Assembly (NCBI GenBank): GCA_021323865.1
Contig: JAJPKF010000020.1
Location: forward strand, 257,673 to 321,672
Length of the DNA stretch: 64,000 nt
Direction: 5' to 3'
Source: Pseudomonadota bacterium
Lineage (GTDB): Bacteria > Chloroflexota > UBA5177 > JAJPKF01
In this document: positions 18,537 through 58,935 of the stretch, one piece after another
Layout of the letters: each line of letters opens with the position of its first letter
Numbering within the stretch: position 1 is the stretch's first letter
Notes under the pieces: model-generated
What the model saw: only the letters and a program-made list of their open reading frames with translations
Told to the model about the DNA's origin: nothing
Database searches by the model: none
Position numbers and translations under genes: made by a program

Positions 18537-18546
18537 CAAGGATGAC

Positions 18547-18588
18547 GGGCTGGCGAAAACGTTTCCCAGCCCCCGCCACTTGGGAAAC
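18547..18588 (+). terminator. Two overlapping, mutually exclusive GC-rich hairpins in the P1-P2 spacer (terminator/attenuator-like); a 12-bp palindrome GGCGCCGGCGCC follows at 18628-18639
   Basis: gggctgg(18547-53)/ccagccc(18566-72) and gtttccca(18561-68)/tgggaaac(18581-88) share nucleotides, so only one can form. This is the only sizeable spacer inside the array besides the P4-P5 gap. Confidence 0.3.
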
Positions 18589-18678
18589 GGTCGCCGCGGA
18601 CATTTTGGGCGTGTGGACCGACCCCTTCGGCGCCGGCGCCTTTTGGCCTGAGCAGTTCTCTCCCTTGATCCGTACCCG

Positions 18679-22282: not shown

Positions 22283-22411
22283 CGGACACGCAAAAGATAT
22301 TCGCACGCCGTGCCGAGCACCTACATGGGGAACTGGACAACGACCGGCTGTCCAAGGAGCTCTGGTCTGGGCCTTGCACCCCGCGTCAGTCTCCATCACG
22401 TTGAGGGAGCC

Positions 22412-24846: not shown

Positions 24847-26111
24847 GTCGCCGTTCCAGTTTCCTTTGGGCTCGTCGCGGAGAGGTCGCTGGCGTGAGTA
24901 GCGGGAACGGGGCCTCGGGACGCATGTTTGGCCGGGAGACGGAGCTCGGCATCAGAGTGGCCTGGGCGCTGGTGGCGAGCGCCGTTACCATCACCTGGGC
25001 AGTGGCCGTGGCGGCTCAATGGAAATCGCTGACCTCGGTATGTCATCGAGCATCCAGCTGCACGAACTTCCAGATGGACGAGGCCACCGCCCATCTGTTG
25101 GCCGCCCACGGCATTCAGCCGGAAGTGTACGGGGTGTACACCGCTCTGGGGCTGGCACTGGTGTGGGCGGTATGGTGTGGACTTGGTGGACTGATCGTCT
25201 GGCGGCGCCCGCGAGAGGTGGGAGCCGTGGTATCCGCCTTCTTCATGGTCCTCTTCCCGCTGTTCGAGATCAGCTTTTGGTTTCCCAGCGGCAACGGCTC
25301 CCAGCTCATGGGAGCCGTTGCGTTCCTGGCGTTAACCATGTTCTACCTGCTCTTCCCCAATGGCAGCTTCGCCCCACGCTGGTTTCGCTTCGTCCCCATC
25401 GCCCTCATTCCTTTAGGGCTGATTTCCAACTTCCTGCCATGGCTCCTCGGGCCGATGCTCCTCGTGTTTTTCCTCAGTGTTTCTGGCAGTCAGATTTATC
25501 GCTTCCGCATGGTGTCCTCTTGGAAAGAGCGACAGCAGACCAAGTGGACAGTGGCCGGCCTGTTGGTTTCCATACTGCTGTTTGTCGCCGTGGCGGTGGT
25601 CCCATTCAGCGTGGATCCAAAGGTTGGGTATTCAGGCACCGGATATGAGGTGCTCACCATCACCCTGGTGCCGATTGTCACGACGCTCATTCCGCTCTCC
25701 GTGGGGGCGGCCATCTTTCGCAGCGGCCTTTGGGATATCGACCGCATCATCAACCGCGCTCTCGTTTACGGCGTCCTCAGCATCGCGCTGGCCGTCGCCT
25801 ATGTGGGCGGCGTTCTGGGGCTCGAGGCGCTGTTCAGACTCTTCATACGGGGCAGCGCGGCGCCAGCGATCGTCGTTTCGACGCTCGCCATTGCCGCCCT
25901 CTTCGGGCCGCTTCGACGGCGAATTCAGGATGCCATCGACCGGCGCTTCTATCGAGCCAGATACGACACCGCCCGAATCCTTTCCGCCTTCGGTGACCGG
26001 CTTCGGCAGGAGGTGGACCTGATGAATCTCACGCAGGACATGACCTCGGTAGTACAGGAGACGCTGCGTCCAGAGCACGTGTCGATTTGGCTGAGCGGGG
26101 AGATGTCATGA
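24843..26111 (+). CDS. Paralog P7 of the membrane-protein array (GTGA overlap with P6; an alternative ATG at 24927 is possible)
   Basis: SVCHRASSCTNFQMDEATAHLL, RPREVGA, FPNGSFAPRWFRF, YRFRMVSSWKERQQTKWT, FRSGLWDIDRIINRALVYGVLSIA, DRRFYRARYDTARILSAFGDRLRQEVDLMNLTQDMTSVVQETLRPEHVSIWL. Confidence 0.75.
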   Translation: MSRRSSFLWARRGEVAGVSSGNGASGRMFGRETELGIRVAWALVASAVTITWAVAVAAQWKSLTSVCHRASSCTNFQMDEATAHLLAAHGIQPEVYGVYTALGLALVWAVWCGLGGLIVWRRPREVGAVVSAFFMVLFPLFEISFWFPSGNGSQLMGAVAFLALTMFYLLFPNGSFAPRWFRFVPIALIPLGLISNFLPWLLGPMLLVFFLSVSGSQIYRFRMVSSWKERQQTKWTVAGLLVSILLFVAVAVVPFSVDPKVGYSGTGYEVLTITLVPIVTTLIPLSVGAAIFRSGLWDIDRIINRALVYGVLSIALAVAYVGGVLGLEALFRLFIRGSAAPAIVVSTLAIAALFGPLRRRIQDAIDRRFYRARYDTARILSAFGDRLRQEVDLMNLTQDMTSVVQETLRPEHVSIWLSGEMS

Positions 26112-44710: not shown

Positions 44711-46369
44711 ATGGGTCGGTCAATGGATTGGATGGGTAGCTCAGAAGACGCCCCCCGGGAGCGGCCGAAGGCGACGGCTGATACGACGACATCCCGGAGG
44801 GATCCGGAGGCGGCCCGACTACGCCTGGCCGACATTCTGGCCGCCCTGTCAATTTCCACGGATCTGGGGCATGGTCAAGCTCCTGAGACTGCGATGCGTG
44901 TCTGTGTTGTGGCCATGCGCCTGGCGGACCTCCTCGGTTTGAGTGCGGGCGACCGGGCTTGCATCTACTTCGCCGCCCTGCTGCGTCACATCGGCTGCAC
45001 CGCCTACGCCCACGAAGAAGCGGAGCTGTTCGCTGGTGATGAGATCTCGATACGCGGCGGCGTGGCGCCTCTCGACACCGCCAATCCACGGGAGATCGTC
45101 GGCTTTACGATTTCGAACGTCGGGTCTCACCTCGCGCCGTTGCCACGTGCTGTGGCGGTAGCGAAGGCGTTGACCCGCACGCCTCGAACCATGAGTGACC
45201 TCGCCGCGTCGAACTGCGAGGTGGGGTCGATGATGGCGCGCCGCCTCGATCTTCCGGACTCCGTACAGACCGCGCTGAATCAGGTCTATGAGCGTTGGGA
45301 CGGCAAGGGCTGGCCCCGGCGCCTCTCAGGCGAGGGTCTGTGCCTCGCTGTGCGCGTCGTTACGGTTGCGGACGCCGGCATTGCCCTGGTTGATGCTGCG
45401 GGCGTAGAGCCTGCTCGAGACGCGGTGGGCAGGCGTGCCGGAGGGATGCTCGACCCGGAGATCGCGGCCACCTTCTCGCATCATTGCTCGAGCATTCTGG
45501 AGCAGCCTCATGAGGAGGACACCTGGGAAACCGTACTGGCTTCTGAACCGGAGCCGTATCGCACTGCGGGTGAGACGCGGCTGGACGGCATCTGCCGCGC
45601 GTTCGCCGACATGGCCGACCTGAAGCTAACGTTCACGCGTGGCCACTCATCCGAGGTAGCACGCCTGTCGGCCGGCGCGGCCTCGCATCTTGGGCTGGAT
45701 CCGACCGAGGCGGCGAACGTAACGCGCGCGGCCTTCCTCCACGACCTGGGCCGTGTCGCCATTCCGAACGGTGTGTGGGAAAAGGCCGGCCGGCTTTCAG
45801 CCTCCGATTGGGAACGAGTGCGCCTCCATCCCTACTACTCCGAGCGAATCCTGTGTCGCTCGGGCGCGCTGGCCCACCTGGGTCCCATTGCCGGCATGCA
45901 CCATGAGCGGCAGGACGGCAGCGGATACCACCGCCAGCTCTCCAAAGCGGCGATACCACTGCCCGCGCGGGTCCTTGCGGCCGCGGATACATACCAGGCG
46001 CTGACGAGCGACCGGCCCTACCGCGTTGCGTGTGATGCGAGCGAGGCTGCTTTGATGATGGAAACGGAGGTGGCAGAAGGAAGGCTGGACGCGCAAGCGG
46101 TTGCCGCCGTGTTGACAGCCGCGGGCCATTCGAAGAAGACGCGATCGGCCTGGCCGGATGGTCTGACCGATAGGGAGGTGGAAGTCCTAAGGCTCATTGC
46201 CCGAGGCGCCTCGCAGAAGGAGGTTGGCCGTCAGCTGGTGATTTCACACCGTACGGCCGCCCACCACATCCAGCACATTTACGACAAGGTGGGCGTCGCC
46301 ACGCGGGCGGCGGCAGCCATGTATGCCATGGAGCATGATTTGCTGGCGGAAGCTCGCTGGCGACCCTGA
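44711..46369 (+). CDS. HD-GYP-type (GYP to GYH variant) phosphohydrolase-like domain(s) fused to a C-terminal LuxR-type HTH
   Basis: First HD-like region ...AALLRHIGCTAYAHEE. Second: HDLGRVAIP...RLHPYYSERIL...MHHERQDGSGYHRQL (HHExxDGxGYP consensus with P replaced by H). C-terminus REVEVLRLIARGASQKEVGRQLVISHRTAAHHIQHIYDKVGV is the LuxR/GerE HTH. Confidence 0.7.
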   Translation: MGRSMDWMGSSEDAPRERPKATADTTTSRRDPEAARLRLADILAALSISTDLGHGQAPETAMRVCVVAMRLADLLGLSAGDRACIYFAALLRHIGCTAYAHEEAELFAGDEISIRGGVAPLDTANPREIVGFTISNVGSHLAPLPRAVAVAKALTRTPRTMSDLAASNCEVGSMMARRLDLPDSVQTALNQVYERWDGKGWPRRLSGEGLCLAVRVVTVADAGIALVDAAGVEPARDAVGRRAGGMLDPEIAATFSHHCSSILEQPHEEDTWETVLASEPEPYRTAGETRLDGICRAFADMADLKLTFTRGHSSEVARLSAGAASHLGLDPTEAANVTRAAFLHDLGRVAIPNGVWEKAGRLSASDWERVRLHPYYSERILCRSGALAHLGPIAGMHHERQDGSGYHRQLSKAAIPLPARVLAAADTYQALTSDRPYRVACDASEAALMMETEVAEGRLDAQAVAAVLTAAGHSKKTRSAWPDGLTDREVEVLRLIARGASQKEVGRQLVISHRTAAHHIQHIYDKVGVATRAAAAMYAMEHDLLAEARWRP

Positions 46370-49574: not shown

Positions 49575-50324
49575 ATGCCCCTACTCCAGCGGACGGTCAT
49601 CGAAGCGGCCCCCACGGAGACAGAGGCGCCCTCGCGGCCGGAAGGCCGCGGCAAGTTCCTGTTCCAGGGGGCCGAGAAGCTCTACGTGCGCGGGGTAACG
49701 TACGGGACCTTTGCGCCGGGTCCGGACGGCTGCGATTATCCCGAACCCGCGACCGTTAAGAGCGACTTCCAAACCATGGCCGCCCGGGGCATCAATGCGG
49801 TGCGCACCTACACGGTCCCGCCTCGGTGGCTGCTCGACCTTGCGGAGCAGCAGGGGCTGCTCGTCATGGTCGGCATTCCCTGGGAACAACACGTCGCGTT
49901 TCTCGACGACCCGGCCATGGTGCGCCGAATCAGGGATCGGGTCCGCAGCGGTGTGGCGGCATGCGCAGGCCATCCAGCCGTACTTTGCTATGCCATCGGG
50001 AACGAGATCCCTGCCTCGATCGTGCGGTGGCACGGCCGGCGAAACATCGAGCGGTTCCTCAGGACCTTGTACCAAGTGGCGAAGAGCCAGGACCCCGATG
50101 CGCTGGTCACCTATGTCAACTTTCCCTCGACCGAATACCTACAGCTTCCCTTTCTCGATCTGGTCTGCTTCAATGTCTACCTGGAGTCCGACGAGGCCTT
50201 CGACGCCTATCTGCCTCGACTCAGCAATCTGGCCGGAAACAGACCCCTGCTCATGACCGAGATCGGGTTGGACAGCTCCCGTCATGGAGAGACCCGGCAA
50301 GCCCAGTTCTGGAATCCCAAGTGA
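49575..50324 (+). CDS. Cytoplasmic clan GH-A (TIM-barrel) glycoside-hydrolase-like protein
   Basis: FLFQGAEKLYVRGVTYGTFAP...GINAVRTY...YAIGNEIP (NEP-like acid/base)...PLLMTEIGLDS (TE nucleophile-like). No signal peptide. Stop TGA overlaps the GTG of the next gene. Confidence 0.65.
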   Translation: MPLLQRTVIEAAPTETEAPSRPEGRGKFLFQGAEKLYVRGVTYGTFAPGPDGCDYPEPATVKSDFQTMAARGINAVRTYTVPPRWLLDLAEQQGLLVMVGIPWEQHVAFLDDPAMVRRIRDRVRSGVAACAGHPAVLCYAIGNEIPASIVRWHGRRNIERFLRTLYQVAKSQDPDALVTYVNFPSTEYLQLPFLDLVCFNVYLESDEAFDAYLPRLSNLAGNRPLLMTEIGLDSSRHGETRQAQFWNPK

Positions 50325-52102
50325 GACGGGTCTTCGCCGCGGGTTTCGCCGGCGCTTTTGTCTTCTCCTGGACGGACGAGTGGTATCGGGGCGGAGCAGA
50401 AATCATGGACTGGGACTTCGGGTTGACAACCCGGAGGCGCAAGCCCAAGCCGGCCCTGACTGCGGTTTCTGCCTCCTTCGGACACATCCCCTTTCCCCCC
50501 GATGTCGCTTGGCCACGGATCTCGGTGGTCGTGTGCACCCACAACGGCTCACGGACGATTGGGGATTGTTGCGAGGGCCTGCTGCAGCTCGACTATCCAG
50601 AGTTCGAGGTCATCGTGGTTGACGACGGCTCAACCGACGGCGCTGCCGAGATCGTGGAGAGCTACGGGTTCCATGCGTTCAGAACCAGCAATCGCGGCCT
50701 GAGCGCAGCACGCAATACCGGCCTGCAGCTGGCAACCGGGGAGATCGTGGCCTATCTCGACGACGACGCGCGACCTGACCCCCAATGGCTTCGGTACCTG
50801 GCCTACAGCTTCATGACCTCGAATCACGCAGCCATCGGAGGTCCGAACATCGCGCCGTCCAGTGATGGTCCCATCGCACAGTGCGTGGCCAACGCTCCGG
50901 GCGGTCCGATTCACGTCCTTCTGACCGACCAAACCGCCGAGCACATACCCGGATGCAACTTTGCGGTTCGATCGTCATGTTTGCGGCAGCTACAGGGCTT
51001 CGATCGACGCTTCCGCGTCGCCGGTGACGACGTCGACATGTGCTGGCGGATCCAGGATGCCGGTTGGACCATCGGCTACAGTCCGGGTGCGATGGTTTGG
51101 CATCACCGCAGAAACTCCATCAAGGCCTACTGGAAGCAGCAGGTCGGCTATGGTCGGGCCGAAGCGCTGCTGGAAAGCAAATGGCCGGAACGGTACAACA
51201 CCTTCGGCCATGTGAGCTGGAAGGGCAGAATCTACGGCGCCGGTCCCACGCGCGCACTGCCTTCATTTCGTGCCCGAGTGTACGGAGGAGTGTGGGGGAC
51301 GGCGCCATTTCAGTCCATTTACGAACGGGTACCCGGCGGCCTGGGATCATTGCCCCTGATGCCGGAGTGGAATCTTCTGACGGTGTTCCTGGGCGGCTTG
51401 GGGCTGCTGGGTTTCCTCTGGCGGCCGCTGCTCGCGGTGCTGCCGTTGTTCGGGCTCGCCATCGGTATTCAGCTGCTGCAGTCGCTGCTGAGCGCCTCTC
51501 GGGCGTCGTTTCCGGCTACCGCCGGCCGCAGCAGGGGCGGCATGATCGCAATCACCACACTGCTCCATGTGCTGCAGCCGATGGCGAGGCTTTGGGGCAG
51601 ACTCCGCTACGGATTGACGCTATGGCGCCTCGGCTCGCGGGCGACACGGCACATATCTCCCGCGCTGCCCAGGCCGCGTCGGATCGACATATGGCGCGAG
51701 ACCTGGGAAGCGCCCGAGACGATGCTGACCAGCCTGGACTCCTGGGTCAGACGCCACGGCCTTCCCACCCGGTCAGGCGGTGGGTTTGACCGCTGGGACA
51801 TGCAGGTGTGCGCCGGCATCCTTGGCTGTGCCCGGCTGAGGATGGCCGTCGAGGAGCACGGTCAAGGCGCGCAGCTGTTCCGGTTTCGGGCCTGGCCCAT
51901 TCCCTCGGTCACGGGTCTGACGCTCATGGGAGTGCTCCTGTTCCTCTGCGCGGCAGCGGCGGTATCCGGCTCGGTGGTGGCGTCAGTCTGCCTGGCTGTC
52001 GTGCTGGCGTTTTTCCTCTTTCACATGGTTAGAGACCTGTCCTGCAGCATTGGATCGGTGCTTGCCGCGTTACACTCCGCCGCAGACCCCGAGCGGCGGT
52101 AG
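50321..52102 (+). CDS. Family-2 glycosyltransferase with C-terminal multi-helix membrane domain (GTG start in GTGA overlap)
   Basis: ISVVVCTHNGSRTIGDCCEGLLQLDYPEFEVIVVDDGSTDG...RGLSAARNTGLQLATGEIVAYLDDDARPD...GGPNI...CNFAVRSSCLRQLQGFDRRFRVAGDDVDMCWR gives the GT2 DxD/DDD plus a QxxRW-like region. Then four or more hydrophobic helices (LTVFLGGLGLLGFLW..., LTLMGVLLFLCAAAAVSG...). Confidence 0.75.
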   Translation: MRRVFAAGFAGAFVFSWTDEWYRGGAEIMDWDFGLTTRRRKPKPALTAVSASFGHIPFPPDVAWPRISVVVCTHNGSRTIGDCCEGLLQLDYPEFEVIVVDDGSTDGAAEIVESYGFHAFRTSNRGLSAARNTGLQLATGEIVAYLDDDARPDPQWLRYLAYSFMTSNHAAIGGPNIAPSSDGPIAQCVANAPGGPIHVLLTDQTAEHIPGCNFAVRSSCLRQLQGFDRRFRVAGDDVDMCWRIQDAGWTIGYSPGAMVWHHRRNSIKAYWKQQVGYGRAEALLESKWPERYNTFGHVSWKGRIYGAGPTRALPSFRARVYGGVWGTAPFQSIYERVPGGLGSLPLMPEWNLLTVFLGGLGLLGFLWRPLLAVLPLFGLAIGIQLLQSLLSASRASFPATAGRSRGGMIAITTLLHVLQPMARLWGRLRYGLTLWRLGSRATRHISPALPRPRRIDIWRETWEAPETMLTSLDSWVRRHGLPTRSGGGFDRWDMQVCAGILGCARLRMAVEEHGQGAQLFRFRAWPIPSVTGLTLMGVLLFLCAAAAVSGSVVASVCLAVVLAFFLFHMVRDLSCSIGSVLAALHSAADPERR

Positions 52103-52105
52103 CTC

Positions 52106-53866
52106 GTGAGCAACTACAGCGACTCTCTCCTCTATCGACGGTTGGCACGGCAGGCCCGGCCTTACTGGCCGCACATCGGGGGTCTGTTTCTGCTGAGCCT
52201 GCTGGCCACACCCATCGCGCTGCTGACTCCGCTGCCGCTCAAGATCGCGGTGGACAACATCGTCGGCCATCATCCCTTGCCGGGCTTCATCGCCTGGCTC
52301 ATCCCATCGGCCGTCGCGAGGTCTCACCTATCCGTGCTCGCATTGGCGGCGGTGATCTTCGTCGTGGTGGCCTTCCTCAATCAGCTCCAGCAATTGGCGA
52401 CCACCGCATTGAGCACCTATGCCGGCGAGAAGATGGTCCTCAGCTTTCGGGAGCAGCTCTTTCGCCAAGCCCAGCGCTTGTCACTGGCATATCACGACAT
52501 GAAGGGCACCACCGATTCCGTCTACCGCATACAGTACGACGCTCCCTCGATCCAGTGGATCGGCATTTACGGCGTCATCCCCTTCGTGTCCGCGCTCTTC
52601 ACGCTGGTGGGCATGTTTGTGGTGACCGTCCAGATCGACTGGGTCCTGGCCGTGGTGGCGATGACCGTATCTCCGGCGCTCTTCCTGGTGGCGCGTTCCT
52701 ACCGCCGGCGCCTCCGGGATCGCTGGCGCAACGTCAAGGACCTGGAGAGTTCTGCGATGTCGGTGGTGCACGAAGGGCTCTCGGCGATACGGGTGATCAA
52801 GGCCTTCGGGCAGGAAGACCGAGAGCAAAAGCGGTTCATCGAGCGTTCCGGCGCCGGCATGTGGGCCCGAATCCGGGTGACCATCATCGCCGGGTGGTTC
52901 GATCTGGCGATCTCCATGATTACCGCCCTGGGCACGGCGGCCGTTCTCTTTATCGGTATGCTTCACGTCGAGGCGCACATCATCACCGTCGGACTGCTGC
53001 TGCTGATCATGGGCTATCTGGTCGAGCTCTACGCACCGCTGCAGACGGTCAGCCAAAGCTTCGCCATGCTGCAGTCCTCCCTCGCGAGCGCGGAGCGAGC
53101 CTTCACCCTACTCGACCAAGCTCCCGATGTCGTGGAGAAGCCCCATGCGCGGCCGTTGATGCGGGCGCTGGGGGACATCAGCTTCGATGATGTTTGGTTC
53201 CGCTACGGCGAGGAACGCCCGGTTCTCAGCGCGGTGTCGTTTCACGTGGCGCCCGGAACCAAGGTGGGAATCGCGGGCGCGACCGGGGCCGGTAAGACCA
53301 CGCTGGTCAGCCTGCTCACCCGCTTCTATGACCCTACCCAGGGCTCGATCATGCTCGACGGCATTGATCTCCGTGATTACAAGCTCGCCGATCTCCGCAA
53401 TCAATTCGCCATCGTGCTCCAGGATCCAGTGCTCTTTTCGACCACCATCGCCGAGAACATCGCCTATGGGCGGCCCGATGCCCGGCCGGAGGAGATCATG
53501 GAGGCCGCACGGATGGCCAACATTCATGACTTCATCAGCAGTCTGCCGGAGGGCTACGAGACGCAGGTTGGAGAGCGCGGCATGCGCATGTCGGGCGGCG
53601 AACGTCAGCGCATATCGCTGGCCAGAGCGTTCCTCAAGGATGCGCCTATCCTGATCCTGGACGAGCCGACGAGCTCAGTGGATCTGCGAACCGAGGCTGC
53701 CATCATGGCAGACATGGAACGCTTGATGGAGGGCAAGACGGCGTTTCTCATCGCTCACCGGCTCTCAACCCTTTCGTCGTGTGACCTGCGCCTCGAAATC
53801 GACTCCGGGCAGCTCCGGTCTCAGAAGAGGGAAGTGACGCCCGATTCAGTGACCGTCGCGAGCTGA
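52106..53866 (+). CDS. ABC exporter, fused permease/ATP-binding (MsbA/lipid-or-glycan-flippase-like)
   Basis: Six-helix TMD. Walker A GATGAGKTT, signature MSGGERQRISLARAF, Walker B LILDEPTSSVD, H-loop AHRL. Confidence 0.85.
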   Translation: MSNYSDSLLYRRLARQARPYWPHIGGLFLLSLLATPIALLTPLPLKIAVDNIVGHHPLPGFIAWLIPSAVARSHLSVLALAAVIFVVVAFLNQLQQLATTALSTYAGEKMVLSFREQLFRQAQRLSLAYHDMKGTTDSVYRIQYDAPSIQWIGIYGVIPFVSALFTLVGMFVVTVQIDWVLAVVAMTVSPALFLVARSYRRRLRDRWRNVKDLESSAMSVVHEGLSAIRVIKAFGQEDREQKRFIERSGAGMWARIRVTIIAGWFDLAISMITALGTAAVLFIGMLHVEAHIITVGLLLLIMGYLVELYAPLQTVSQSFAMLQSSLASAERAFTLLDQAPDVVEKPHARPLMRALGDISFDDVWFRYGEERPVLSAVSFHVAPGTKVGIAGATGAGKTTLVSLLTRFYDPTQGSIMLDGIDLRDYKLADLRNQFAIVLQDPVLFSTTIAENIAYGRPDARPEEIMEAARMANIHDFISSLPEGYETQVGERGMRMSGGERQRISLARAFLKDAPILILDEPTSSVDLRTEAAIMADMERLMEGKTAFLIAHRLSTLSSCDLRLEIDSGQLRSQKREVTPDSVTVAS

Positions 53867-53870
53867 CGAA

Positions 53871-54884
53871 GTGCTTGCGCAAGAGGAGCTGTCGACTGCT
53901 GCCGCCCGGAGCGAGACACCTTCCGATCTGCCTACCGACGACGAACTTCTCTTCGGCCTAGCCATCGCTCTGTCGGAGACAGGGTCGAAGCCTCGGAAGC
54001 TGGAGCTGGTGGACCGAAGGCCCAATCCCGAAGCCTCCACCTTTGCCAGTGAGCGCATCACCTGCCGCGTCGACGGCACCGAGCTCCGTCTCTTCTGCAA
54101 GTACGCGGTGAGCCGGGTGGGAGAACCGGACCCGGCAGCGGGCCTCGCCTACGAGATCGCGGTCTACCGCTCGATCCTTGGCCATCTCAACCTCGCAACC
54201 CCGCGCTATTACGGATCGGTTGATCAGGGCGTCCCCTCGGCGCCCTGGCTGGTCGTGGAGTCGATCGAGGCTGCCCAATCGATTGACGTCATGGAGGGGA
54301 CGGAGGCGGTTTGCGCGGCCGCAAAGTGGATCGGAAACTTCCACCGCCTCATGGAATCATCCGGGAGCCGCTTCGACACCGGCTTTCTCAGTCAGTTCGC
54401 CGAGGCCGACTGCGTCGCGCCGCCGGAGTGGCTGGATCGTCTCAAACAGCTCCCTCGGGGGGCTGAGCCGGTTTGGTGGTACCGGCTGGTTCGGTATTTT
54501 CTGAGGCTGGCGCCGATCCTGGCGGAGGACGCGACGGTCATTCACGGCGACTATTACGGACCGAACGTGCTGTTCCAACAGGGCCAGGTACGTCCGCTTG
54601 ACTGGCATACGGCAAGGTCCGGTCCCGGCGTCATCGACCTGGCGATGCTGCTCGAGGCTCGCCCGAGCTCTCAAGTCGAACCGATCGTGTCGGCCTATCG
54701 TCTGGCCCGGTGGGGTGCAAACCCGCCGGCTGACCTCTTAGACAGATTGACTGCCGCTCGACTGTGGCTGCACTTCAGAACCGTCGGCGTTGTCTGGGTC
54801 CCCGGCCGCGGCAGGAAGTGGCGACTTGAGTCCCTGCGGGAGGAGGCACGCGAGTTGGGGTTTCTCCGTTCCTCGAATGGTTGA
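53871..54884 (+). CDS. Aminoglycoside-phosphotransferase (APH)/choline-kinase-fold phosphotransferase
   Basis: Brenner-type catalytic loop VIHGDYYGPNVLF and DWHTARSGPGVIDLAMLLE (DxxxxG). N-terminus LFCKYAV. Confidence 0.7.
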   Translation: MLAQEELSTAAARSETPSDLPTDDELLFGLAIALSETGSKPRKLELVDRRPNPEASTFASERITCRVDGTELRLFCKYAVSRVGEPDPAAGLAYEIAVYRSILGHLNLATPRYYGSVDQGVPSAPWLVVESIEAAQSIDVMEGTEAVCAAAKWIGNFHRLMESSGSRFDTGFLSQFAEADCVAPPEWLDRLKQLPRGAEPVWWYRLVRYFLRLAPILAEDATVIHGDYYGPNVLFQQGQVRPLDWHTARSGPGVIDLAMLLEARPSSQVEPIVSAYRLARWGANPPADLLDRLTAARLWLHFRTVGVVWVPGRGRKWRLESLREEARELGFLRSSNG

Positions 54885-55923
54885 GGCCAGCGCAGGTGCC
54901 GCTGGGGATCGAGGGGTGGCTGTTGCCGGGCACTCGAACTTGCGCCCGCCCTACCCGGCCGACTCAGCGCTGCGTGAAGGGCTCGAAGGTATTTTCCGGC
55001 GGGCCCGGCCCCATGCGCGACTGGAGATCGTGTCGAGGCAGCTAAATCCATTCACCAGCACCTTTGCCTCGGAGAAAGTGGTGTGTCGGGTCGACGGCGA
55101 GGTGGTTCGCCTGTTTTGCAAATACGGCACCGGCCGTAATGCCGCCGAGCAAGGGGCGGATCCCAAGCTGCTGGGCTACGAAACCGAGATATACCGCTCG
55201 GTGCTTCCGACACTACAAGTCTCGACTCCACTTTTTCATGGGGCTATCCTCTCGGGACTGCCGCATTCGCCCTGGCTTTTCATCGAGGATCTTGACGGCG
55301 CCACCCAGCTCGACAAGTCGCCAACGCTCGATGTCTATCTGCGGGCCGCGGCCTGGATCGCCCGGTTCCACGACGAATCTCGAGCGCTTCTCGATGACCC
55401 CCGAGCGCGCTTCATTCGCCGTTTCGTCCTCGACGACTATCTGGCTCCGATCGAGCCCATCGGATCCATGGATCTCTTCGGAGCCGAGGGCGACTGGCTG
55501 GGTGAGGTCATCGAGCGCTACTGCGATCTGGCGCCCATCCTCACCGACGATCCCGTGCTCACCCATGGCGAGTACTATCCGCAAAACATTCTGGTTCGGG
55601 GAGACCGGATCGCTCCGGTTGACTGGCAGGGTGCAAGGATCGGAGCGGCCGAGGTCGACCTGGCCATGCTCACGGACGCCTGGTCAAATCGACAGACCGC
55701 CCGGATGGTACAGCACTACCGCAGTGCGAGCCGGCAGAAGATGAGCGATGAATCATTCGAGCGCCGCTTCCTGGCCGCCCGGATCTACGTTCAGCTTTAC
55801 TGGCTCACGACCGAGCCGGGCCGGGTGCGCTTTCTTCGATCTGAAGCACGGCACCTCGGGGTGAAGGTGCCGAAGGCGCCACCTCGGCCAACCCGGCAGG
55901 GGCCGGGCAGGCCCGCGAGCTGA
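54877..55923 (+). CDS. Second APH-fold phosphotransferase, paralog of the upstream gene (ATG 54877 overlaps the upstream stop; ORF-track start 54790 is too early)
   Basis: LTHGEYYPQNILV and DWQGARIGAAEVDLAMLTD. Shares TFASE(R/K)(I/V)(T/V)CRVDG..(L/V)RLFCKY with its neighbour. Confidence 0.7.
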   Translation: MVEASAGAAGDRGVAVAGHSNLRPPYPADSALREGLEGIFRRARPHARLEIVSRQLNPFTSTFASEKVVCRVDGEVVRLFCKYGTGRNAAEQGADPKLLGYETEIYRSVLPTLQVSTPLFHGAILSGLPHSPWLFIEDLDGATQLDKSPTLDVYLRAAAWIARFHDESRALLDDPRARFIRRFVLDDYLAPIEPIGSMDLFGAEGDWLGEVIERYCDLAPILTDDPVLTHGEYYPQNILVRGDRIAPVDWQGARIGAAEVDLAMLTDAWSNRQTARMVQHYRSASRQKMSDESFERRFLAARIYVQLYWLTTEPGRVRFLRSEARHLGVKVPKAPPRPTRQGPGRPAS

Positions 55924-55924
55924 A

Positions 55925-57133
55925 ATGACCAAGCGCGTGATCGTGGTGCTTGGGGTTATGGCGGGTAATCCCTATGCCGGCATCGCCTGGCAATGCCTTC
56001 AATACCTGATTGGCCTGCGGCGTCTCGGCCATGAGGTCTACTACTTCGAAGTGTCCTCCGTGTGGCCGTACGATCCGAACCGTCGGAGTCCGGTGGACGA
56101 CTCCGCGTATCCACTGAGCTACCTCCAGAGGCTTGCGGCCGACTTCGATTTCCGTGGCCGCTGGGCCTACCGCCGGAGCTACTCCGATGGCGAGTGGTTC
56201 GGCCTGCCGAGGACGCGCGCCGAGGCCATACTTCGGGAAGCCGACGCCGTGCTCAACATCTCGGGCGCCACGGACGTTCGCGCCGAGGGCTTGAGCGAGA
56301 ATCTCATTCTCGTGGGAACCGATCCGGTCGTGGAGGAGGCCCGGTTGGCCGCCGGCATCGAGGACACAGCCTGCCATATCTCGGCGCACCGAGCCAGCTT
56401 CACCTTTGGCGAGAACATCGGGACCGACCGGTCGCCCGTGCCGGCCTTCCCCAATCTCGCCGGAACGACGCGCCAGCCCGTGGTTCTCGATTTCTGGGGA
56501 CCGCAAGGCGCTCCATCCCGGGATGTCTTCACGACAGTGGGCAACTGGCATCAGGAAGGCACGGAGATCGCATTCGGCGGCGAGACATACTTCTGGAGCA
56601 AGGATCGGGAGTTCCTAAGGTTCGTCGACCTGCCGCGGCGCCTCGGCATGCAGATAGAGCTGGCGACCACATTGGATCCCTCGGGCGAGCTGGAATCGCC
56701 TGGCAACGGCTCCCTTCCGGCCGGTGCCGGAACACCACGAGAGGTGTTGGAGAGCCATGGATGGAGGCTGATCGATGCCCTGGCCCTGACCGGCGATCCG
56801 TGGTCCTATCGCGACTACATCCGGGCCTCGAAGGGTGAGTTCACGGTGGCCAAGGACGCCAACGTCCGGCTCCGAACCGGCTGGTTCAGCGATCGCAGCG
56901 CCTCATACCTGGCCGCCGGACGGCCGGTCATCACCCAAGACACCGGCTTCGGCGACGTGCTCCCCACCGGCCGCGGTCTGTTCGCCTTTCGGTGCATGGA
57001 GGATATTCTGGCCGCCTTTGCCGCCATTCAAGCGGACTACGCCGAACACAGCCGCGCGGCGCGTGACATCGCCCAGCAGTATTTCCGTGCGGAGACCGTG
57101 CTGAGTCGCATGCTGGCCGACGCGGGCCTCTAG
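55925..57133 (+). CDS. Hypothetical protein, probably a GT-B-fold glycosyltransferase-like enzyme
   Basis: C-terminal SDRSASYLAAGRPVITQDTGFGDVLPTGRGLFAF resembles the GT1/GT4 donor-binding helix-loop. N-terminal VIVVLGVMAGNPYAGIAWQCLQYLIGLRRLGHEVYYFE is Rossmann-like. Not a confident family call. Confidence 0.45.
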   Translation: MTKRVIVVLGVMAGNPYAGIAWQCLQYLIGLRRLGHEVYYFEVSSVWPYDPNRRSPVDDSAYPLSYLQRLAADFDFRGRWAYRRSYSDGEWFGLPRTRAEAILREADAVLNISGATDVRAEGLSENLILVGTDPVVEEARLAAGIEDTACHISAHRASFTFGENIGTDRSPVPAFPNLAGTTRQPVVLDFWGPQGAPSRDVFTTVGNWHQEGTEIAFGGETYFWSKDREFLRFVDLPRRLGMQIELATTLDPSGELESPGNGSLPAGAGTPREVLESHGWRLIDALALTGDPWSYRDYIRASKGEFTVAKDANVRLRTGWFSDRSASYLAAGRPVITQDTGFGDVLPTGRGLFAFRCMEDILAAFAAIQADYAEHSRAARDIAQQYFRAETVLSRMLADAGL

Positions 57134-57958
57134 GTGCCCCGTAGTACCGCCGGTGAAGGGCGTGGCGATCTCCCTTCATCGGCTCCGGGCCGAACCTCTG
57201 TCGACGGAGCCGTGGCATTGGGAGAAGCAGCGCCCAATGTCGAGAGGCGCCTCATCGTCAACGCCGACGATTTTGGGCTCTCGCCGGGCGTGAACGAGGG
57301 GATTATCCGGTCTCATGAGGAGGGCATCGTTACCAGCGCCAGCCTCATGGTCCGTCAGGCGGCTGCAGCCGAGGCCGCGTCGTATGCACGCCGCTCCCCT
57401 CGTCTCAGTGTTGGCCTGCACCTTGACCTGGGAGAGTGGGAGTTTCGTGGCGCGGAGTGGAGGATCCGATATGAGGTGGTTCCGATGGATCAAAGCGAAG
57501 CGGTCGAGCGGGAGGTGGAGAGCCAGCTTGATCGGTTTCACGATCTCGTGGGCACGCATCCCACGCACATCGACAGCCACCAGCACATTCACCGAGACCA
57601 GCCCGCCCGCTCGGCGGTTCTCGCGGCGGCATCCGAGTTGAGAATACCGGTTCGGGACATGACCGAGGAGATTCGCTACCTCGGCGACTTCTACGGGCAA
57701 GACGATACGGGAAATCCGCTGCCGGAGCTGGTCAGCGTCGCGGCATTGGTGCGACGTGTCTCGGAGCTGCCCGCGGGTACCACCGAGCTGGGCTGCCACC
57801 CGGGCCTCGACGACAAGCTGCCCTCGGCCTACGGCCGCGAACGAGCCCTGGAGGTGGAGGCTTTGTGTAGTCGGGAGGTCAAGGCGGCGATCACGGAGGT
57901 TAATGTCTCCCTCATTTCCTTCCGCGACGTTGCGTGCTCGCCGTTGAGGGCCCGATGA
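57134..57958 (+). CDS. YdjC/ChbG/HpnK-family carbohydrate deacetylase; true start probably ~57240
   Basis: LIVNADDFGLSPGVNEGIIRSHEEGIVTSASLMV...VGLHLDLGEW...HIDSHQHIH has the YdjC conserved D and H motifs. Confidence 0.75.
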   Translation: MPRSTAGEGRGDLPSSAPGRTSVDGAVALGEAAPNVERRLIVNADDFGLSPGVNEGIIRSHEEGIVTSASLMVRQAAAAEAASYARRSPRLSVGLHLDLGEWEFRGAEWRIRYEVVPMDQSEAVEREVESQLDRFHDLVGTHPTHIDSHQHIHRDQPARSAVLAAASELRIPVRDMTEEIRYLGDFYGQDDTGNPLPELVSVAALVRRVSELPAGTTELGCHPGLDDKLPSAYGRERALEVEALCSREVKAAITEVNVSLISFRDVACSPLRAR

Positions 57959-58935
57959 AGATCCTCGTCACCGGGGGAGCTGGATACATCGGCAGCCATA
58001 CCTGCAAGGCGCTTGCGGCTGCCGGCATTGAGCCGGTCGCCCTCGACGACCTCAGCACCGGCTGGCGCGATCTGGTACGGTGGGGCCCCTTGGTCGAGGG
58101 AACCCTGGCCGATCGCGACTTCATCGCTTCGACGCTGCGGAAACACCACGTTGCCGGCGTCATCCACTTTGCCGCCAAGGCATATGTGGGCGAATCGGTA
58201 ACCAATCCTCGCGAGTACTTTCAAGCCAACGTCGTCAACACCCTCAACCTCTTGGCGGCGATGCTCGACGCGGGGGTCAGGCACATTGTCTTCTCGTCGA
58301 CGTGCTCCGTCTACGGCACATCCGCCGGTGTCCCCATACGCGAGGAAGAACCTCCGAAGCCGGTCAACCCATACGGGGAGTCGAAGCTCTTCGTCGAGCG
58401 CGTGCTGGGCTGGCACGAGCGCGCGTATGGCTTGAGCTGGATGGCACTGCGCTACTTCAACGCCGCCGGCGCGAGTCCGGATGGAGATATTGGGGAGAAG
58501 CATGAGCCCGAGACACATCTGATCCCGCTCGCGATCGCGGCCGCCCTGGGTGCAGAACGGCAGCTTGGCATCTTTGGAACCGACTACCCGACCCCCGACG
58601 GCTCAGCCGTTCGGGACTACATTCATGTCGACGACCTGGCAGCGGCCCATCTGCTGGCGCTCGAGCGTCTGCAGGGCGGGGGACAGAGTGGGCCGCTGAA
58701 TCTGGGGACCGGGAAGGGCCACTCGGTGCGCGAGGTGGTGCAGTCCGTCGAGAAGGTCAGCGGCCGAACGGTGCCGGTGGTCGAAATGGCGCGCCGTCCC
58801 GGAGACCCTGCGGAGCTGGTTGCCGACCCCAGCCGGGCGAGGGAACTTCTGGGCTGGGAGGCCAGGTATCAGGACCTCGACGGCATTGTCGAGAGTGCGT
58901 GGCGGTGGCAGAGCCGGGCAGAGCGCTCTGGCTAG
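57955..58935 (+). CDS. galE: UDP-glucose 4-epimerase
   Basis: MKILVTGGAGYIGSH (GxxGxxG), YGESK (YxxxK), NLGTGKGHSVREVV. ATGA overlap with the deacetylase gene. Confidence 0.85.
   Translation: MKILVTGGAGYIGSHTCKALAAAGIEPVALDDLSTGWRDLVRWGPLVEGTLADRDFIASTLRKHHVAGVIHFAAKAYVGESVTNPREYFQANVVNTLNLLAAMLDAGVRHIVFSSTCSVYGTSAGVPIREEEPPKPVNPYGESKLFVERVLGWHERAYGLSWMALRYFNAAGASPDGDIGEKHEPETHLIPLAIAAALGAERQLGIFGTDYPTPDGSAVRDYIHVDDLAAAHLLALERLQGGGQSGPLNLGTGKGHSVREVVQSVEKVSGRTVPVVEMARRPGDPAELVADPSRARELLGWEARYQDLDGIVESAWRWQSRAERSG

Follow-up and report, generated by a model that had tools for sequence, protein, structure and literature searches.

A tightly packed operon for sugar-chain assembly and export with a frameshifted GH-GT2 synthase gene

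Introduction

What product is built and exported by an uninterrupted run of genes for sugar-handling enzymes, kinases and an ABC transporter, and how is this run affected by a break in the gene of its main enzyme? Within the window (the whole stretch of 64,000 nucleotides of DNA analysed), the run extends from a first ORF start at 49575 to the galE stop at 58935. An earlier note on this DNA had proposed a nine-gene glycoconjugate synthesis-and-export locus, and we know of no published study of such clusters from our search. Our analysis indicates that these closely spaced genes form a genuine operon for sugar-chain building and transport across the cell membrane.

Results

Eight ORFs, all on the plus strand, occupy the region (Table 1), and not the nine genes counted earlier. 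The abutting or overlapping arrangement described in the earlier note is correct, with junctions spanning an 8-nt overlap to a 4-nt gap. The families that it named are recovered by Pfam/TIGRFAM-type profile matches for the GH, GT2, ABC, kinase, YdjC and GalE proteins. Hence, its coordinates, packing and families stand, whereas its gene count and its separate GH-like and GT2 genes do not. Since these two ORFs are parts of one gene, seven gene units remain.

Table 1 Positions of the features of the operon in the window
Feature	Position	Strand	Description
Synthase 5' part	49575..50324	+	Hydrolase-like (beta/alpha)8 domain of clan GH-A (residues 1-244), 5 out-of-frame codons, TGA
Frameshift site	50299..50306	+	1-nt deletion within caa gcc ca/g ttc tgg, near 50303
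GH/GT2 junction	GTG 50321; TGA 50322-50324	+	GTG overlaps TGA
Synthase 3' part	50321..52102	+	Last GH-barrel strand, GT2 (GT-A) domain, interface helix, four membrane helices
GT2/ABC junction		+	3 nt
ABC half-transporter, MsbA/PglK/NdvA type	52106..53866	+	Membrane domain and ATPase domain; exporter or flippase
ABC/APH1 junction		+	4 nt
APH-fold kinase 1	53871..54884	+	PF01636, 53.9 bits; canonical catalytic loop HGDYYGPN
APH1/APH2 junction	ATG 54877	+	8-nt overlap
APH-fold kinase 2	54877..55923	+	PF01636, 50.8 bits; catalytic loop HGEYYPQN
APH2/X400 junction		+	1 nt
X400, GT-B-fold glycosyltransferase	55925..57133	+	AlphaFold2 and Foldseek; adjoins YdjC
X400/YdjC junction	GTG 57134	+	0 nt when counted from this GTG
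YdjC-family carbohydrate de-N-acetylase	57134..57958	+	PF04794, 168.1 bits, full model
YdjC/GalE junction	57955	+	ATGA overlap
GalE, UDP-hexose 4-epimerase	57955..58935	+	TIGR01179, 422.7 bits (cut-off 262.3)

In homologues, the synthase is one polypeptide of 830-930 aa; when the two ORFs are rejoined to 842 aa and aligned with 23 such proteins, no gap opens at the junction. The GH and GT2 ORFs are therefore halves of one gene that a 1-nt deletion has interrupted. At the break, the invariant residues Q242 and A243 belong to frame 1, and the invariant L246 and Q249 to frame 2. The site does not lie within a long homopolymer and recurs unchanged in a JGI contig from a separate assembly (L007), in which the 3' ORF is called as 593 aa. 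In all of the 84 other loci examined, the reading frame of this gene is unbroken. In the closest relative (L089), the GH domain has independently lost about 32 nt, and invariant residues with them.

Because the synthase is frameshifted, the main enzyme may be impaired in this organism. In the extreme case the locus would be a decaying remnant that yields no product, a reading compatible with any other and, in our judgment, possible but somewhat unlikely. The two independent deletions, the position of the 1-nt deletion outside a long homopolymer, its recurrence in the JGI contig and the absence of frame breaks elsewhere speak for it. On the other hand, the remaining genes of the about 9.4-kb cluster are intact in both lineages, and the GH part in the window retains every invariant residue. 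Both lesions fall within the GH domain, about 10% of the cluster, which makes random decay unlikely. In addition, the GTGA overlap at 50321 would permit coupled re-initiation, so that the GT2 part could be translated. Since the two assemblies may share reads, an assembly error keeps a small probability.

The GH-like ORF matches PF02836 (E 5.8e-13), and the GT2 ORF matches PF00535 (104.9 bits) as well as PF13641 and PF13632. The nearest curated family of the GT2 is MftF (157 bits, under its cut-off of 280), and its scores on the oligo- or polysaccharide-building families MftF, EpsD and PgaC are far above those on polyprenyl-phosphate transferases. The AlphaFold2 model of the rejoined protein (pLDDT 78.5) contains helices 597-612, 617-642, 652-679, 779-797 and 801-837; a conserved beta-rich domain lies between membrane helices 2 and 3. 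The synthase has just four membrane helices and lacks a QxxRW motif, so that it forms no channel by itself and depends on a separate exporter. Foldseek matched the GT part of the model to BcsA, PcManGT and WrtF, and the rejoined model to GH157, GH158, GH2 and GH5_18 enzymes (E about 1e-14 to 1e-12). N143-E144 aligns with the catalytic NE of LaGH157, and E229 with E224 of that enzyme; all three residues are invariant across 24 sequences. With GH157/GH158 endo-beta-1,3-glucanases and GH2 beta-glucuronidases/galactosidases, the domain has in common its (beta/alpha)8 fold, a conserved NE as acid/base and a Glu as nucleophile, at an identity of only about 19%, a similarity that gives no substrate specificity. 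The best precedent for a cytoplasmic GH domain is the cyclic glucan synthase, whose product is soluble; this observation counts against the lipid-carried chain favoured below. GH157 acts on beta-1,3-glucan, and a Bacteroides GH157 enzyme is predicted at the cell surface (PMC10229575), whereas the GH domain of the synthase lies in the cytoplasm and is joined to a glycosyltransferase.

The exporter matches PF00664 (117.8 bits) and PF00005 (114.3 bits). It reaches 403.7 bits on the MsbA model (cut-off 602), 336 bits on the glucan-exporter model (cut-off 733) and 156.6 bits on the PglK model (cut-off 1000); all three curated cut-offs are missed alike, which counts against assigning the protein to any one substrate class.

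X400 matches a single Pfam model, PF13524, at an E value of 0.0078 that is below cut-off, and its sequence has no match in the PDB. Its more than 7,700 homologues are mostly annotated as hypothetical proteins and in a few cases as YHS domain-containing proteins, and the family counts 3,331 cluster representatives at E<=1e-3. The GT-B-like character proposed earlier could be confirmed by structure only: the best Foldseek matches of the AlphaFold2 model (pLDDT 86) are the GT4-type GT-B enzymes tll1591, BGluT, PimA, BshA and MshA. X400 thus models as a glycosyltransferase of a large family without a Pfam model.

The downstream YdjC protein, whose start JGI places at 57218 instead of GTG 57134, scores 143 bits on ChbG and 118 bits on HpnK, both under cut-off. 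The PDB matches of GalE are UDP-glucose 4-epimerases (E 1e-107 to 1e-91).

The two kinases are paralogues (37% identity, BLASTP E 1e-55). Kinase 2 has a Glu in its catalytic loop where Asp is usual, a variant also found in cluster-linked kinases of six other loci (L009, L016, L033, L035, L058 and L070), and both L016 and L082 encode proteins in which two APH domains are fused. The PDB matches of the cluster-kinase profile are corramycin, macrolide, capreomycin and aminoglycoside phosphotransferases, with no WbdD or WaaP structure among them. The WaaP-like logic previously suggested for these kinases therefore lacks a detectable sequence relationship, their nearest solved relatives being of the small-molecule APH type. 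This proximity to small-molecule kinases rather than to known glycan kinases is a point against the pathway proposed below.

The cluster was compared with 84 loci in which the GH-GT2 gene served as anchor; they represent at least 17 phyla of bacteria. An ABC exporter lies near the anchor in 62 loci and X400, often as 2-4 paralogues, in 55; this core of GH-GT2, ABC and X400 is 48-62% identical across at least 17 phyla. APH kinases occur in 24 loci, a GalE-like gene adjoining the anchor (counted at >=45% identity) in 23, YdjC in 17, a hexapeptide acyltransferase in 16 and UDP-glucose dehydrogenase in 7; methyltransferases and kinases recur in related loci. X400 accompanies YdjC in 17/17 cases and directly adjoins it in 16. 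Twelve loci of about nine phyla share the set of ABC, APH, X400 and YdjC. Kinases are found in 12/17 loci with YdjC versus 12/67 without (Fisher p = 6e-5). All these co-occurrence figures leave phylogenetic relatedness and contig truncation out of account. Homologues also join parts of the cluster into single proteins, as GH-GT2-ABC (P0019), ABC-X400, ABC-X400-GT2 and X400-GT2 fusions; ABC is joined to X400 in P0250, P0260 and P0263. The earlier note had named scattered homologues as refuting its view; instead, the genes of the cluster are repeatedly grouped near the anchor. This recurrence in many phyla indicates grouping beyond chance and, with the fusions, bears out a single synthesis-and-export unit.

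Discussion

We give an even chance to the view that the operon assembles a lipid-carried sugar chain at the cytoplasmic face, which is partly de-N-acetylated and phosphorylated, and then exported by the ABC protein. GalE would supply a UDP-galacto-configured sugar, and a membrane-anchored GH-A/GT2 protein, its GT2 inverting, would make a short beta-linked chain at the cytoplasmic face. In intact homologues, the GH-A domain, with both catalytic glutamates kept, may trim, release or rearrange this chain. X400 would add an alpha-linked N-acetylhexosamine, from which YdjC would remove the acetyl group to leave a free amine; a precedent is NaxD, a YdjC-family enzyme whose substrate for deacetylation is a lipid-linked HexNAc (PMC11279074). 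Phosphorylation of a hydroxyl, either as a decoration or as a chain-end cap, would fall to the two kinases, which probably operate as a pair. A dimer of the MsbA-type half-transporter would finally carry the finished product across the cytoplasmic membrane.

MsbA and PglK flip lipid-linked substrates, and PimA, a fold neighbour of X400, acts on a membrane lipid. We therefore prefer a membrane lipid as carrier, either in a glycolipid or in a polyprenol-linked intermediate whose priming enzyme would lie outside the cluster; the chain would be flipped on this lipid rather than released as a soluble sugar. Against this carrier, no lipid-priming enzyme is present in the cluster or recurrent in related loci. 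Classical ABC-dependent O-antigen clusters likewise rely on a primer, WecA, encoded elsewhere, so that a polyprenol-linked product is still allowed. As the earlier note had stated, Wzx, Wzy and Wzz are absent, here from the ORFs scanned at 40-64 kb, where an ABC-2 transporter is also absent, in agreement with a non-Wzy route. Overall, the earlier interpretation as a non-Wzy glycan synthesis and export unit holds, whereas its gene count and its treatment of GH and GT2 have to be given up, its likeness to WaaP finds no support in sequence, and its roles for GalE as supplier, for YdjC on a GlcNAc-type intermediate and for the kinases on a sugar or lipid hydroxyl are putative.

Two known systems share parts of this plan. 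In Campylobacter Pgl, GT4-type and GT2 enzymes assemble an oligosaccharide at the cytoplasmic face and the MsbA-like half-transporter PglK flips it. A similar combination is found here, with weak matches to PglI (5.6e-08) and PglK. However, our cluster has no priming phosphoglycosyltransferase, oligosaccharyltransferase or bacillosamine genes, Pgl has no GH domain, and the PglK cut-off is far from being reached. In E. coli O9a, glycan assembly is completed in the cytoplasm before export through an ABC transporter, with a primer encoded elsewhere and WbdD, a kinase and methyltransferase, as chain terminator. A kinase here, and methyltransferases in related loci, could similarly cap the chain end, whereas the exporter is an MsbA-type half-transporter and not the Wzm/Wzt ABC-2 system of O9a. 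The X400-YdjC pair also recalls MshA/MshB, BshA/BshB and PIG-A/PIG-L, in which a retaining GT-B enzyme stands beside a deacetylase. The deacetylases MshB, BshB and PIG-L are of the LmbE type and not YdjC, and X400 matches no GT4 Pfam model above cut-off.

An unlikely reading, to which we nevertheless give weight, is a soluble exported oligosaccharide resembling a cyclic beta-glucan. In the cytoplasm, a beta-glycan, free or enzyme-primed, would be the product of the GH-GT2 protein, whose GH-A domain would cut the chain to length, release it or cyclise it through transglycosylation. Decoration by X400, YdjC and the kinases would be added to this chain, and the ABC protein would export it to the periplasm or medium, for instance as an osmoprotectant or signal. 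Cyclic beta-1,2-glucan is passed to ChvA/NdvA, an MsbA-type ABC half-transporter. The absence of a priming enzyme, the score on the glucan-exporter model and the proximity of the GH domain, with both catalytic Glu kept, to endo-beta-1,3-glucanases suit this view. So does the architecture of the Cgs/ChvB/NdvB synthase, in which a membrane-anchored GT2-like GT-A domain is combined with cytoplasmic domains of hydrolase origin that control the length of the chain and cyclise it (PMC10901819). However, that synthase is made of GT84, GH94 and GH144-like domains, to which the GT2 and clan GH-A domains found here are not homologous, and our cluster has GT-B enzymes, a deacetylase and kinases in addition. 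In addition, the exporter scores higher on the MsbA model than on the glucan-exporter model, whose cut-off it misses, lipid-acting PimA is among the neighbours of X400, and the disruption of the GH domain in this clade, with the rest kept, is hard to square with an essential role in release or cyclisation.

We consider improbable a lipid-linked amino-sugar donor pathway like the Arn and Flm/NaxD modifications of lipid A. The GT2 would load HexNAc on polyprenyl phosphate, YdjC would deacetylate it and the ABC protein would flip it, before a GT-C enzyme encoded elsewhere transferred the amino sugar to another envelope molecule. This succession of a GT2, de-N-acylation of a lipid-linked sugar and flipping is that of ArnC/ArnD/ArnT and of Francisella FlmF2/NaxD/FlmK, and NaxD, a member of the YdjC superfamily, deacetylates undecaprenyl-phosphate-GalNAc (PMC11279074). 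The C-terminal membrane anchor of the GT2, with weak matches to DPMS and PcManGT, resembles that of polyprenyl-phosphate glycosyltransferases, GalE could provide UDP-GalNAc, and one related locus (L006) has a PMT-type GT-C gene. Against this scheme, no GT-C gene occurs at 40-64 kb or recurs in the 84 loci, the GT2 scores point away from polyprenyl-phosphate transferases, and YdjC is rarer than X400, which the scheme does not need. It also leaves the GH domain, absent from Arn/Flm like the GT-B enzymes and kinases, without a role.

Finally, an aminoglycoside-like secondary-metabolite cluster, in which the APH proteins would confer self-resistance, the ABC protein efflux, and X400 with the deacetylase would form a glucosamine-containing small molecule, agrees with the solved relatives of the kinases and with the GT4-type transferase and subsequent deacetylase of aminoglycoside pathways, but is very improbable: no cyclitol synthase, aminotransferase, radical SAM or other scaffold gene is present in the window or among recurrent neighbours, 60 of the 84 loci have no kinases, and the conservation of the core over so many phyla is unlike that of a specialised antibiotic cluster.

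For the family as a whole, YdjC, APH and GalE, each present in only 20-29% of loci, are accessory, and the details of the lipid-carried pathway fit a sub-type rather than every member. Within the lineages represented by our locus and its closest relative, a tolerated or selected loss of GH activity suits both lesions better than random decay. In this organism, the split synthase may act as two working polypeptides, function without GH activity, or leave the pathway impaired.

Organization of the locus

The locus consists of eight long ORFs, all on the forward strand, with almost no intergenic space. The earlier note had counted nine genes in this run; the common orientation and the tight packing stand, but there are eight ORFs and the first two are parts of one split gene. 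Upstream, a 238-bp gap separates the locus from an unrelated AHSA1/SRPBCC gene, and downstream the unit is closed by a convergent F420-type luciferase-like oxidoreductase gene. The cluster has a GC content of 0.62-0.65, against 0.60-0.66 in the rest of the window; recent horizontal import, considered on grounds of composition, was therefore rejected. Promoter and terminator scans did not give more sites than shuffled sequence, and an Rfam search of the whole window returned no match.

Features of the locus and of the rest of the window (positions in the window; junctions are with the next gene; the last column gives loci with the feature near the synthase gene, as lower bounds)
Feature	Position	Strand	Junction	Loci of 84
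ABC half-transporter pair, MsbA-type	4128-5957 and 5954-7786	+		
Array of seven paralogous ORFs	17340-26111	+		
BTAD + AAA_16 + TPR regulator	26905-29802	-		
HDOD-like + HD_5 + GerE/LuxR protein	44711-46369	+		
Whole locus	49575-58935	+		
Synthase, GH part		+	GTGA overlap	
Synthase, GT2 part		+	3-nt gap	
Beta-rich domain of the synthase	51650-51900	+		
ABC exporter		+	4-nt gap	62
Kinase 1 (APH)	53871-54884	+	8-nt overlap (ATG 54877)	24 (APH kinases)
Kinase 2 (APH)	54877-55923	+	1-nt gap	
X400	55925-57133	+	0-nt gap	55
YdjC	 	+	ATGA overlap	17
GalE (neighbours at >=45% identity)		+		23
Hexapeptide acyltransferases				16
UDP-glucose dehydrogenase				7

Four further features lie elsewhere in the window. 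The second MsbA-type pair consists of overlapping genes, probably encodes a heterodimeric exporter and is unrelated in position to the glycan locus. The seven tandem paralogues (390-446 aa, 41-52% pairwise identity) have about 7-9 hydrophobic segments each and no Pfam match; the AT skew at 18-26 kb, coinciding with the array, is strongly negative. It is directly followed, on the opposite strand, by the 965-aa regulator, a large ATPase of the SARP/LuxR-like type. Finally, a 552-aa protein combining an HDOD-like domain, an HD-GYP-type HD_5 domain and a DNA-binding domain is encoded 3.2 kb upstream of the locus and could be a candidate regulator linked to cyclic-nucleotide signalling.

The synthase is encoded by one frameshifted gene

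The GH-like gene and the GT2 gene had been taken as separate. However, in homologues of the GT2 protein one polypeptide chain of 830-930 aa includes a GH2_C domain at its N-terminus, and the 842-aa protein obtained when the two window frames are joined aligns end to end, gapless at the junction, with 23 homologues (57-59% identity). We conclude that there is a single, frameshifted gene. Frame 1 reads the invariant residues Q242 and A243, and frame 2 reads the invariant L246 and Q249; the switch between them places a 1-nt deletion at about 50303, which is not inside a long homopolymer. The frameshift falls between residues 244 and 245 and parts strand 7 from the strand 8 region 'FSWTDEW', so that the catalytic domain is not continuous. 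The GTG at 50321 overlaps the upstream TGA, and the GT2 part could thus still be translated. The JGI contig Ga0070739_10002127, assembled separately, has the same frameshifted sequence; the two assemblies may, however, have reads in common. This contig was reached from the X400 protein (P0121) and from P0241, an exact look-up of the 593-aa GT2 product (P0001) having given no record; because the translation of the GTG start is all that distinguishes P0001 from P0241, the two lend no independent support to the frameshift.

The GH domain matches PF02836 (E 5.8e-13) and has the (beta/alpha)8 barrel of clan GH-A. In Foldseek searches, the model of the rejoined synthase retrieved GH157, GH158, GH2 beta-glucuronidases and GH5_18 at E 1e-14 to 1e-12. 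The catalytic pair of the clan is kept, with N143-E144 (strand 4 acid/base) and E229 (strand 7 nucleophile) invariant in 24 sequences. In the alignment, the counterpart of E229 in the GH157 endo-beta-1,3-glucanase LaGH157 is E224, which carries the mutation in substrate complex 9g4n; activity of GH157 on beta-1,3-glucan is documented (PMC10229575). No signal peptide or membrane helix precedes the GT2 domain. Since GT2 enzymes use nucleotide sugars, the GT2 domain should face the cytoplasm, and the sequence and model place the GH domain presumably there as well.

The GT2 domain scores 104.9 bits on PF00535 (cut-off 23.3), and its DxD motifs 'DDGS' and 'DDDA' are invariant in the alignment. It is similar to GT-A enzymes that build glycans and are peripheral, chondroitin synthase among them (3.5e-16). 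The nearest curated family is MftF, at 157 bits against a cut-off of 280. Matches to PgaC (85 against 422), NodC (25.6 against 550) and EpsD are likewise below cut-off. In the AlphaFold2 model, all four membrane helices of the synthase are C-terminal, in the order interface helix, two membrane helices, beta-rich domain and two further membrane helices, and the alignment has 'WKQQxGYG' in place of QxxRW. In BcsA, PgaC, NodC and hyaluronan synthase, by contrast, pore helices flank the catalytic domain and Q(Q/R)xRW is present; the window synthase lacks both. With only four C-terminal helices and no QxxRW, it does not belong with pore-forming synthases such as BcsA and PgaC, and this accounts for its need of a separate exporter. 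For the same lack of pore-forming architecture, a PNAG-, cellulose- or Pel-type system was rejected.

The beta-rich domain between helices 2 and 3 (residues about 690-777) carries the invariant motifs GGDxDRWD and EEHGxGxQ..R..W; no PDB relative was identified among the fold matches listed.

Exporter, X400, YdjC and GalE

Profile searches bore out the family calls made from the sequence alone for GH, GT2, ABC, both APH kinases, YdjC and GalE. In the ABC protein (586 aa), a six-helix ABC_membrane domain (PF00664, 117.8 bits) precedes an ATPase domain (PF00005, 114.3 bits), as in a half-transporter. The protein falls below every substrate-specific cut-off: MsbA (403.7 against 602 bits), glucan exporter (336 against 733), ChvA (277.7 against 585), HepA (320 against 725) and PglK (156.6 against 1000).

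X400, a 402-aa protein, has no significant sequence match in Pfam, NCBIfam or PDB; only PF13524 came up, with 16.6 bits against a cut-off of 25. Its AlphaFold2 model, based on 32 homologues, is confident (pLDDT 86, pTM 0.89) and shows two Rossmann-like domains in a GT-B arrangement. The best Foldseek matches of the model are GT-B transferases of the GT4 type, namely tll1591, the pteridine glucosyltransferase BGluT, PimA, BshA and MshA (E 3e-12 to 1e-7, TM about 0.55). Calling it GT-B-like was thus right at the level of the fold. Inspection of the alignment shows that the EX7E motif is incomplete, with the first acidic residue present (E/D323) and Ala at the second position. The family is large: over 7,700 close homologues were found, most of them annotated as 'hypothetical protein' and a few as 'YHS domain-containing protein', and 3,331 cluster representatives fall within E<=1e-3. 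Two members, P0268 and P0299, are giant proteins of 1,584 and 2,148 aa that join X400 with GT2, GT4, sulfotransferase or methyltransferase domains, which points to assembly-line enzymes for heavily decorated glycans.

The YdjC protein matches PF04794 over its full length (168.1 bits, model positions 1-265 of 266) and lies below the substrate-specific cut-offs of ChbG (143.4 against 227) and HpnK (117.7 against 232.6). GalE exceeds the cut-off of TIGR01179 (422.7 against 262.3 bits) and matches GalE structures in the PDB at E 1e-107. The residue at the aligned 'gatekeeper' position for substrate range is probably Leu.

A pair of APH-type kinases

The two kinases are paralogues (37% identity) and both are of the APH type (PF01636, 53.9 and 50.8 bits). 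The beta-3 lysine, the HxDxxxxN loop and the metal-binding aspartate are represented by K77, H225, N232 and D244, invariant in 20 cluster-linked kinases. The catalytic loop is the canonical HGDxxxxN in kinase 1 and HGE in kinase 2. This exchange of the catalytic-loop Asp for Glu, in the form HGE(Y/F)YPxN, is also found in cluster-linked kinases of six other loci (L009, L016, L033, L035, L058, L070); its recurrence identifies a conserved variant, not decay. The HGE kinase often adjoins a canonical HGD paralogue, and two APH domains occur in one protein in L016 and L082, which suggests that the HGE and HGD kinases form an obligate pair.

The earlier note had likened these kinases to WaaP. A profile made from the 20 cluster-linked kinases was searched against all PDB sequences; it matched corramycin, macrolide 2'-, capreomycin and aminoglycoside kinases and YihE, all small-molecule phosphotransferases, and no chain named WaaP or WbdD is among its 25 matches at E<=0.01. 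The analogy therefore finds no support in sequence.

Conservation across phyla and gene fusions

A search for relatives of the GH-GT2 synthase with one genome per species gave at least 597. The best 80 of these come from at least 17 bacterial phyla and one Thermoplasmata genome bin and share 48-62% identity with it. These 80 and four further loci make up the 84 neighbourhoods centred on the synthase gene. Many contigs are short, which makes the neighbour counts (table) minimum values. Fifty loci extend 5 kb or more beyond the synthase gene on its downstream side; 42 of them have the ABC exporter and 40 have X400. X400 often occurs as 2-4 paralogues per locus, and methyltransferases are further recurrent neighbours. 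The set of the window (ABC, APH, X400 and YdjC) is found in 12 loci of about nine phyla, some with two tandem kinases (for example L025, L016 and L032). All 17 loci with YdjC have X400, and in 16 of them the two genes directly adjoin. APH kinases are present in 12 of these 17 loci against 12 of the 67 without YdjC (Fisher p = 6e-5, uncorrected for phylogeny).

Natural fusions reinforce the links between the parts of the cluster. GH, GT2 and ABC are joined in one protein of 1,467 aa (P0019), and ABC-X400, ABC-X400-GT2, X400-GT2 and APH-APH fusions also occur.

Some loci depart from this arrangement. In Desulfoferrobacter suflitae (L001/L002) and Tateyamaria pelophila (L072), the solitary GH-GT2 gene has neither an ABC nor an X400 gene within 10 kb, its neighbours in D. 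suflitae being GH65 phosphorylase and HAD genes. Such lone genes in cultured species imply that a dedicated neighbouring exporter may not always be needed. The Thermoplasmata archaeon bin (L070, DASQXV010000094.1) has two tandem GH-GT2 copies, about 55% identical to that of the window, beside APH-like genes. These copies could reflect horizontal transfer into archaea or a binning artefact.

Two independent lesions in the GH domain

The closest relative found, L089 (GH-GT2 71-74% and X400 69% identity), also has a broken synthase gene. At L089:5450-7889 (JGI 3300086344, Ga0683577_0000625), a deletion of about 32 nt with a frameshift, independent of the lesion in the window, takes out the invariant PxTEYLxLPF stretch of the GH domain. 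Programmed frameshifting was rejected, since there is no slippery site and the lesion in L089 is a deletion of this size. In all 84 other loci, the GH-GT2 gene is free of frame breaks.

Seen in this genome alone, the locus looks like an ordinary sugar operon whose main gene is broken, and the pathway might be inactive in this lineage. We find this rather doubtful. All genes of the cluster besides the synthase are intact in the window, and the cluster of L089 is otherwise intact too (ABC, X400, GT2, GT4, APH, YdjC, epimerase). As the GH domain makes up about 10% of the cluster length, two independent lesions within it argue for tolerated or selected GH loss in the clade over random decay. This double knock-out hints that the hydrolase activity is conditionally dispensable or selected against.

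Proposed pathway

Very probably, the locus is one unit that makes and exports a decorated glycan. This keeps the general idea of the earlier note, and it builds on the domain identities, operon-like packing, co-localisation conserved across phyla and fusion proteins established here. A fuller proposal, which includes a lipid-linked intermediate, has in our estimate an even chance of being right. GalE would supply a galacto-configured UDP-sugar. On the inner side of the membrane, GT2 would assemble a beta-linked chain, to be trimmed, released or rearranged by the GH-A domain in intact homologues. The kinase pair would phosphorylate a hydroxyl, as a decoration or a chain-end cap; WbdD phosphorylates in this manner in E. 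coli O9a. X400 would add an alpha-linked HexNAc that YdjC would then de-N-acetylate, a glycosylate-then-deacetylate logic known for MshA/MshB, BshA/BshB and PIG-A/PIG-L. For YdjC enzymes, the precedent is NaxD, which acts on undecaprenyl-phosphate-GalNAc (PMC11279074). The product would be exported by the ABC dimer.

The earlier note had argued against a Wzy-type polymer, which fits the scans: Wzx, Wzy, a chain-length regulator and a priming phosphoglycosyltransferase are absent from the Pfam matches of ORFs scanned at 40-64 kb and from the recurrent neighbour families of related loci. No ABC-2 type transporter (Wzm/Wzt, KpsM/KpsT) is found in the locus, whose sole transporter is the ABC_membrane/ABC_tran half-transporter.

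In the main rival reading, to which we give a minor but appreciable weight, the product would be a soluble oligosaccharide, synthesised along the lines of cyclic beta-1,2-glucan. That glucan is exported by the MsbA-type NdvA/ChvA. In its synthesis, GH-derived cytoplasmic domains set the chain length and cyclise the product (PMC10901819). An Arn/NaxD-like route to a lipid-linked amino-sugar donor is less likely and would surprise us: no GT-C (ArnT/FlmK-type) transferase family was matched among ORFs scanned at 40-64 kb, a PMT-type gene being observed in related locus L006 only, the X400 enzymes would be superfluous, and the GT2 domain scores better on glycan-building families. An aminoglycoside-like secondary-metabolite cluster is highly improbable, as scaffold genes are lacking and the core is widespread across at least 17 phyla.

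Novelty and implications

The superfamilies to which the parts of the decorated-glycan unit belong are all known, and so is the general type of system, glycan synthesis coupled to an exporter. The combination of a cytoplasmic GH-A domain and a four-helix-anchored GT2, an MsbA-type exporter and a Pfam-less GT-B family appears new. No curated functional family matched the GH-GT2/exporter/X400 combination, all such cut-offs being missed, and we found no published description of the cluster family in the searchable literature, where absence is not proof. We therefore propose, tentatively and with slightly less than even confidence, a very widespread uncharacterised glycan-export system (GH-A-GT2 with four-helix anchor, MsbA-type exporter and X400). 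It would make an undescribed class of glycan or glycolipid with optional free-amine, phosphate, methyl or acyl decorations, and its hydrolase would have been knocked out twice in the lineage of the window.

A glycosyltransferase fused to a catalytically competent cytoplasmic hydrolase is a rare design, the best-known case being cyclic glucan synthase. The GH-GT2 family would offer a second system in which to study how synthesis and cutting are coupled, and the existence of cultured carriers makes the question testable. Intact clusters occur in the cultured Segetibacter aerophilus NBRC 106135 (L049), Nibrella saemangeumensis JCM 17927 (L019) and Planctomycetales bacterium ZRK34 (L080). Bacteria from soil, sediment and aquatic habitats, in at least 17 phyla, share the core genes at roughly 50-60% protein identity, as does one archaeal genome bin. 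Should the system prove to make a new envelope glycolipid or exported oligosaccharide, that product would be common among environmental bacteria yet so far overlooked, and could bear on desiccation or osmotic tolerance, surface charge or signalling.
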